Of a stretch of DNA of 64,000 nucleotides, positions 57,185-57,392 are shown in pieces (position 1 is the first letter of the stretch; every line of letters begins with the position of its first letter). The DNA lies in assembly GCF_003334335.1 (NCBI RefSeq), contig NZ_QOWQ01000010.1; one strand, 5' to 3'. Source of the DNA: Escherichia coli (GTDB taxonomy: Bacteria > Pseudomonadota > Gammaproteobacteria > Enterobacterales > Enterobacteriaceae). The notes beneath the pieces are model-generated. The model worked only from the letters and a program-made list of their open reading frames with translations. It had not been told where the DNA came from and ran no database searches. The position numbers and the translations under genes are program-made.

Positions 57185-57392
57185 AATTTTTCCTGAAGGT
57201 TGCGCTATCAAAACGCAAAAATGTTAACGAACTGGGATTTTAGTTAACCTTGCTGCGACAATTTTTGATTTAAGGCAGTTAAAGTTGTATTGGTGGTAGC
57301 AGCAATTTCATATGGAATTGTTGATTTATACCGCTATGTTATTTTTCTGATATGGCAAAATAGGATGATTGTTGAAACAGGGAGTAAAACTC

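Follow-up and report, generated by a model that had tools for sequence, protein, structure and literature searches.

Conservation and fixed spacing of the two known FNR sites between the divergent ubiU and ubiT genes of Escherichia coli

In class II FNR promoters such as nirB and dmsA, a 14-bp site of the TTGAT-N4-ATCAA type overlaps the -35 region, the -10 element lies about 34 nt from the centre of the site and expression is activated anaerobically. This class II position was found for 19 of 23 activated promoters in the study of Myers et al. 2013 (PMC3688515). The closest described system is that of Arias-Cartin et al. 2023, who defined two FNR sites, F1 and F2, with exactly the 14-mers that are treated here (PMC10470549). 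A survey of the control of ubiTUV by FNR/Anr across Pseudomonadota, published in ISME J in 2024, reported a predicted FNR motif in the spacer of 96% of the loci in which ubiU and ubiT are divergent; it does not give the details of E. coli, namely, two sites, three promoters and the erosion of a central palindrome (PMC11707229).

The window that we analysed, a stretch of 64,000 nucleotides of K-12-like DNA, carries the E. coli locus ubiV-ubiU / ubiT-yhbS according to the RefSeq annotation. Compared to the system of Arias-Cartin et al., we are dealing with the same DNA and the same 14-mers and arrive at the same conclusion, with no substantive difference (PMC10470549). The feature is already known, since F1 and F2 were published and tested by mutation, so that no new biology is claimed; what is added here is a footprint over 79 spacers, the invariance of the spacing, matrix ranks and the conservation of the non-consensus halves. 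Similarly to the ubiTUV loci of the ISME J survey, the locus has an FNR motif in the spacer that separates its divergent ubiU and ubiT genes (PMC11707229), and it shares with nirB and dmsA all the class II properties listed above. Unlike typical class II FNR promoters, it has just one consensus half per site and two modules placed back to back within 56 bp. The conserved T11 and A13 are missing from the second half of F2, a site whose score is no higher than background. The features of the spacer are collected in the table.

Coordinates of the features of the ubiU/ubiT spacer in the window
Feature	Position	Strand	Remarks
ubiU/ubiT spacer	57185-57392	.	208 bp, AT-rich; three promoters and two FNR sites
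ubiU start ATG (57184-57182) and Shine-Dalgarno CAGGA (57195-57191)	57182..57195	-	RefSeq start agrees; block 57185-57197 conserved
ubiUVp start, approximate	57228-57230	-	from the published F1-TSS distance of 36 nt and the -10 position
ubiUVp putative -10 TAAAAT	57237-57242	-	invariant in 79 spacers
FNR site F1 TTGATTTAAGGCAG	57265-57278	.	published site; activates leftward (minus-strand) ubiUVp; TTGAT half promoter-proximal
ubiTp1 candidate -35 TTGATT	57265-57270	+	left half of F1; putative hexamer assignment
ubiTp1 core (distal, FNR-independent)	57288-57302	+	candidate -10 TATTGG 57288-57293; TSS ~57301-57302
FNR site F2 TTGATTTATACCGC	57321-57334	+	published site; activates proximal ubiTp2; consensus half promoter-distal
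ubiTp2 putative extended -10-like element TGGCAAAAT (TG, one base, CAAAAT)	57353-57361	+	conserved block
ubiTp2 start, approximate	57367-57368	+	sigma-70 ChIP peak maps nearby
ubiT RBS GGGAG (57380-57384) and GTG start (57393-57395)	57380..57395	+	RefSeq start agrees

The original prediction described the divergent ubiU and ubiT as separated by an AT-rich spacer of 208 bp, and this is correct: the G+C content is 34%, versus 52% for the whole window, and the RefSeq starts agree. The spacer is identical to that of MG1655, with the window oriented as the reverse complement of K-12 numbering, and an 801-bp query around it found matches in 5425 of 5426 complete E. coli genomes, with at least 99% identity in 5422. 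Across 55169-59169, the sole difference from MG1655 is a T in the window in place of the K-12 G at 57071, inside ubiU; the G is also found in strain EEC_W5. The GTG start proposed for ubiT is the one annotated in RefSeq and was retained in all 78 scorable relatives. Two TTGAT pentamers had been noticed, one of them placed exactly (57321-57325), whereas the other, given as 57266-57270, is located at 57265-57269. A full-consensus palindrome had been sought by eye without success; indeed, TTGAT-N4-ATCAA is absent, and both 14-mers have 3 mismatches to it, all in the second half. A scan of the spacer region found no terminators. An Rfam scan of 56900-57700 returned CRISPR-DR22 as the sole match, and we regard it as due to chance because it is below the gathering score (21.9 bits versus 50, E = 0.063).

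Binding of FNR to this region has been reported repeatedly. In the ChIP-chip study of Grainger et al. 2006, FNR gave a peak at yhbT/yhbU, for which the site TTTAACTGCCTTAAATCAAAAATT was proposed; this sequence corresponds to the reverse complement of F1 plus flanks (PMC1802558). Myers et al. 2013 observed an FNR ChIP-seq peak that was called by all peak callers, and listed yhbUV among the directly activated operons; the ratio of delta-fnr to wild-type expression was 0.07 for yhbU, 0.115 for yhbV and 0.49 for yhbT (PMC3688515). Just one motif was counted in this peak, and the best motif reached an ln(p) of -8.72 compared to a threshold of -10.75 for genome-wide prediction, so that the site had aptly been called degenerate beforehand (PMC3688515). 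The summit of the peak, 3,299,421-423, maps to 57269-57271 on F1, no more than about 3 bp from its centre, if an offset of +1977 from U00096.2 to U00096.3 is assumed. This offset, which we inferred from the difference in genome length, underlies all mapping of ChIP coordinates in this study. Federowicz et al. 2014 found the region to be Fnr-bound by ChIP-chip in two conditions, with both yhbUV and yhbST activated (PMC3974632).

The contribution of the individual sites was established by Arias-Cartin et al. 2023. Using GFP fusions with and without pBAD-fnr, they showed that ubiUVp and ubiTp2 are activated by FNR and that ubiTp1 is not (PMC10470549). The mutF1 primer, which changes TTGAT to GATGA, abolished anaerobic UbiV, and mutF2 (TTGAT to CATGA) or deletion of F2 removed the anaerobic induction of UbiT and left a basal level; neither mutF1 nor mutF2 altered the expression of the other gene, and the mutations were made both on plasmids and in the chromosome (PMC10470549). 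Occupancy, FNR dependence and the effects of mutating TTGAT are thus matters of published experiment. Direct binding of FNR at F2 is suggested by genetics, not by a footprint; the status of F2 as an FNR site is supported by genetics and conservation. The expectation of FNR sites and of anaerobic induction is borne out by these mutations and by ChIP peaks on the spacer in three studies, the comparison with published FNR ChIP data being one that the original prediction had proposed. Its observation is confirmed and its FNR reading supported, with the one-base offset in a coordinate as its sole error.

Conservation was investigated in a set of 79 spacers, consisting of that of the window and those of 78 further species of Enterobacteriaceae, with UbiU identities of 92-99%. 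The divergent ubiU/ubiT arrangement is kept in all 78 relatives, with spacers of 205-245 bp. Conserved columns (at least 95%) occur in blocks and amount to 89 of 208 in the whole spacer, 13 of 14 in F1 and 11 of 14 in F2. Those of F1 include the non-consensus AGGCAG; in F2, TTGATTT and CCGC are invariant, and TA at 57329-57330 occurs just in Escherichia and in two other spacers. More distantly, TTGATTTAAGGCAG and TTGATGTAAGGCAG are retained in outgroup loci whose UbiT identities fall to 65% and 52%. In a further locus (UbiT 49% identical), ubiT does not adjoin ubiUV and an FNR-like site was not found there; this locus is uninformative for the comparison of spacers.

The two sites keep a fixed distance from conserved -10-like elements. 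From the centre of F1 to the last base of the ubiUVp -10, we measured 34.5 nt in 79 of 79 spacers, which corresponds to a site at about -41.5. F1 was reported to be located 36 nt upstream of the ubiUVp TSS (PMC10470549), and by this distance its centre is at about -42.5/-43.5, the TSS having an ambiguity of 1 nt. Likewise, the centre of F2 lies 33.5 nt from the last base of TGGCAAAAT in 79 of 79 spacers and also in the outgroup locus with the 52% identical UbiT (L085). With F2 reported 33 nt upstream of the ubiTp2 TSS (PMC10470549), its centre is at about -39.5/-40.5, again with an ambiguity of 1 nt in the TSS. Both centres thus fall within the +/-4 window that Myers et al. used for class II geometry. 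A sigma-70 ChIP peak at 3,299,327 (U00096.2) maps to about 57365 with the offset of +1977 (PMC3688515). The distance between F1 and F2 varies from 56 to 67 bp across the spacers, and the length of the ubiU leader varies too. Fixed spacing between each site and its -10, together with a variable F1-F2 distance, is the geometry expected of two independent class II modules. A sigma-70 consensus scan of the spacer region detected none of the three real promoters; its sole match (minus strand, 57211-57183) runs into the ubiU start codon and was rejected as a real promoter.

We are highly confident that the spacer contains two back-to-back class II FNR-dependent promoter modules and one FNR-independent promoter. 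At low oxygen, [4Fe-4S]-FNR dimers would bind F1 and F2, each of which combines one perfect TTGAT half with one non-consensus half. At F1, whose centre is some 41-43 bp upstream of the start of leftward ubiUV transcription, FNR is expected to recruit RNA polymerase through class II contacts, and this would render ubiUV almost wholly FNR-dependent. At F2, centred about 40 bp upstream of the ubiTp2 start, FNR would add an anaerobic boost, and ubiTp1 (start ~57301) would provide basal UbiT in air, the F1 and F2 modules acting independently of each other. The ~14-fold FNR dependence of ubiU would then be due to a strong site with no alternative promoter, and the ~2-fold dependence of ubiT to a weak site combined with a constitutive promoter. 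Within this model, sequence identity, matrix scores, conservation and fixed spacing are direct observations, the exact -10 and -35 hexamers are putative assignments, and the weak halves may be kept on purpose. FNR control of ubiUVT explains the switch of E. coli to oxygen-independent ubiquinone synthesis, which is relevant to gut colonisation.

The position of ubiTp1 raises the question of whether TTGAT could serve as a promoter element. F2 was reported to lie 19 nt downstream of ubiTp1, on which our position of the ubiTp1 TSS is based (PMC10470549). All 79 spacers have TTGATT at the same 17-bp distance from a hexamer that reads TATTG(G/A) in 74 of them and whose last base precedes the reported ubiTp1 start by 8-9 nt. 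The TTGATT of F1 is thus a possible -35 of ubiTp1, which fits the notion that TTGAT(T) represents mainly TTGACA-like sigma-70 -35 hexamers and no FNR half-sites, the mutations acting by promoter damage. We consider this notion highly improbable, since the 27-29 bp that separate the TTGAT halves from the -10 elements of ubiUVp and ubiTp2 are too many for a -35, since activation requires FNR in trans and since mutF1 was reported to leave ubiT expression unchanged (PMC10470549). If F1 does have a dual role, this would at best complement the FNR model and could not take its place.

Beyond the model of two FNR modules and one FNR-independent promoter, the spacer might encode more, namely, a dual -35 role of F1 with a hand-over between promoters, tuned weak halves and a lost PdhR-like input; taken jointly, we regard these additions as tentative and rather doubtful. 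From its sequence, the TTGATT of F1 may at the same time be the -35 element of the aerobic ubiTp1. If so, ubiTp1 would be switched off by FNR bound at F1 and ubiTp2 switched on through F2, resulting in a hand-over from P1 to P2 instead of simple addition. As part of the same doubtful reading, the non-consensus halves (AGGCAG and CCGC) might be under purifying selection even in distant relatives, in which case the strength of the sites would be tuned deliberately.

The third element concerns a palindrome found in most non-Escherichia Enterobacteriaceae (loci L006-L081) at 24-38 bp after the start of F1, corresponding to 57289-57303 in the window. It has an invariant core, GTATTG-N7-CAATAAT, and lies over the -10 and the start of ubiTp1. 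It resembles the PdhR box (ATTGGT-N3-ACCAAT; consensus AATTGGTnnnACCAATT, checked against PMC7660256), which is perfect in 12 species (Citrobacter, Salmonella) and has 1-2 mismatches in 51 more, with one mismatch in 26, always at a constant offset. Among random spacers, a match to this box with at most 2 mismatches occurs in 1.7%. In Escherichia, the right half of the palindrome is displaced or lost: the best match of the window, ATTGGTGGTAGCAGC at 57289-57303, has 3 mismatches, all in the right half, so that the spacer of the window does not contain a PdhR box. Moreover, ubiT/yhbT is not among the PdhR gSELEX targets of E. coli, and no link between PdhR and ubiT was found in the literature consulted. 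A hairpin was considered for the palindrome of the relatives and rejected, as its inner positions lack clean covariation on either strand. Judging from the alignment, a protein site or a promoter element appears more likely than a hairpin. Should the PdhR reading be true, a pyruvate-linked input to ubiT would have been lost in Escherichia.

A scan for ArcA sites, which had also been proposed, gave no support for control of the spacer by ArcA, alone or with FNR, via direct repeats of TGTTA, and we attribute only a slight probability to such control. TGTTA-N6-TGTTA with 2 or fewer mismatches does occur three times in the spacer (at 57222, 57326 and 57337), and a TGTTAAC at 57222-57228 is conserved. 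In the window as a whole, however, the frequency of this pattern is that expected by chance (44 observed versus 40.8 expected), and the best match, 57337-57352, is poorly conserved in its first repeat. In addition, neither Park 2013 nor Federowicz 2014 lists yhbU/yhbT among the ArcA ChIP targets, whereas the Fnr tables do include this locus. A palindromic hexamer, GTTAAC, is conserved at both 57223-57228 and 57243-57248, on either side of the -10 and the start of ubiUVp; the two copies are 20 bp apart from centre to centre, a spacing at odds with ArcA direct repeats, for which 11 or 22 bp would be expected. An ArcA operator in the sense of repeats above chance that are conserved and occupied by ArcA is thus unsupported in the spacer. 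Nearby, in the ubiUV 5' UTR, we observed a small inverted repeat (TTGCG-N9-CGCAA, 57200-57218) whose columns are poorly conserved.

Returning to the FNR sites, we determined how far they can be recognized by their motif. TTGAT and ATCAA occur 3 times in the spacer, with 0.85-0.91 expected (P = 0.05-0.06), and two TTGAT on one strand have a P of 0.12; the pentamers alone are not significant above chance, and significance comes from position, conservation and published experiments. The third pentamer, ATCAA at 57207-57211, was rejected as a half-site because its partner half matches at 0 of 5 positions, its columns are poorly conserved and it is located in the ubiUV 5' UTR downstream of the TSS; it is probably due to chance. 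A search with the consensus was abandoned as a detector for lack of discrimination, TTGAT-N4-ATCAA with 3 or fewer mismatches being found 282 times in the window versus 233 expected. An FNR matrix scan, likewise suggested beforehand, succeeded for F1 and failed for F2. We built the matrix from 31 AlignACE FNR sites published by Grainger et al., excluding the yhbT/yhbU site. F1 scored 12.2 bits, well above background (rank 4 of 63,987 window positions; median of the training sites, 11.0), owing to a second half that retains the informative C12 and A13. F2 scored 4.8 bits (rank 280), which does not exceed background: one such site occurs per ~229 bp, and 45% of random spacers of the same composition have at least two sites at or above the score of F2.

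That the TTGAT pentamers are chance occurrences in an AT-rich spacer with no regulatory role, as their marginal count (P = 0.05-0.12), the 282 consensus matches in the window and the background score of F2 would allow, has a negligible probability and is excluded by the published mutations and by conservation, since mutation of each pentamer abolishes FNR-dependent expression (PMC10470549) and both are invariant in 79 spacers at a fixed distance from conserved -10 elements, with FNR ChIP peaks on the spacer.

The value of these results is one of calibration: reading by eye found both functional halves of degenerate FNR sites below the standard thresholds of genome-wide matrices, and such sites are told apart from background far better by a constant distance to a conserved -10 across species than by the motif score.

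Some further observations were made in this region. In one complete E. coli genome, that of strain EEC_W5 (NZ_CM130020.1, locus L083), a 768-bp IS1 is inserted in the spacer at 57303-57310 with an 8-bp target duplication, CAATTTCA. This element parts ubiTp1 and F1 from F2, ubiTp2 and ubiT. A weak ChIP-exo peak of YciT (signal/noise, 4.1) at about 57299-57328 takes in both the ubiTp1 start and F2's left half, and the strongest ChIP-exo peak of YbcM (signal/noise, 470; paraquat), at 3,299,238-252 of U00096.2, corresponds to about 57440-57454, some 50-60 bp inside ubiT (PMC8464067; both with the offset of +1977). Finally, the second-best match to the FNR matrix in the window, CTGATCTTTATCAA at 59249-59262 (13.0 bits), is located inside the 3' end of yhbO, a gene that is among the FNR-activated operons compared across expression studies by Myers et al. 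(PMC3688515).
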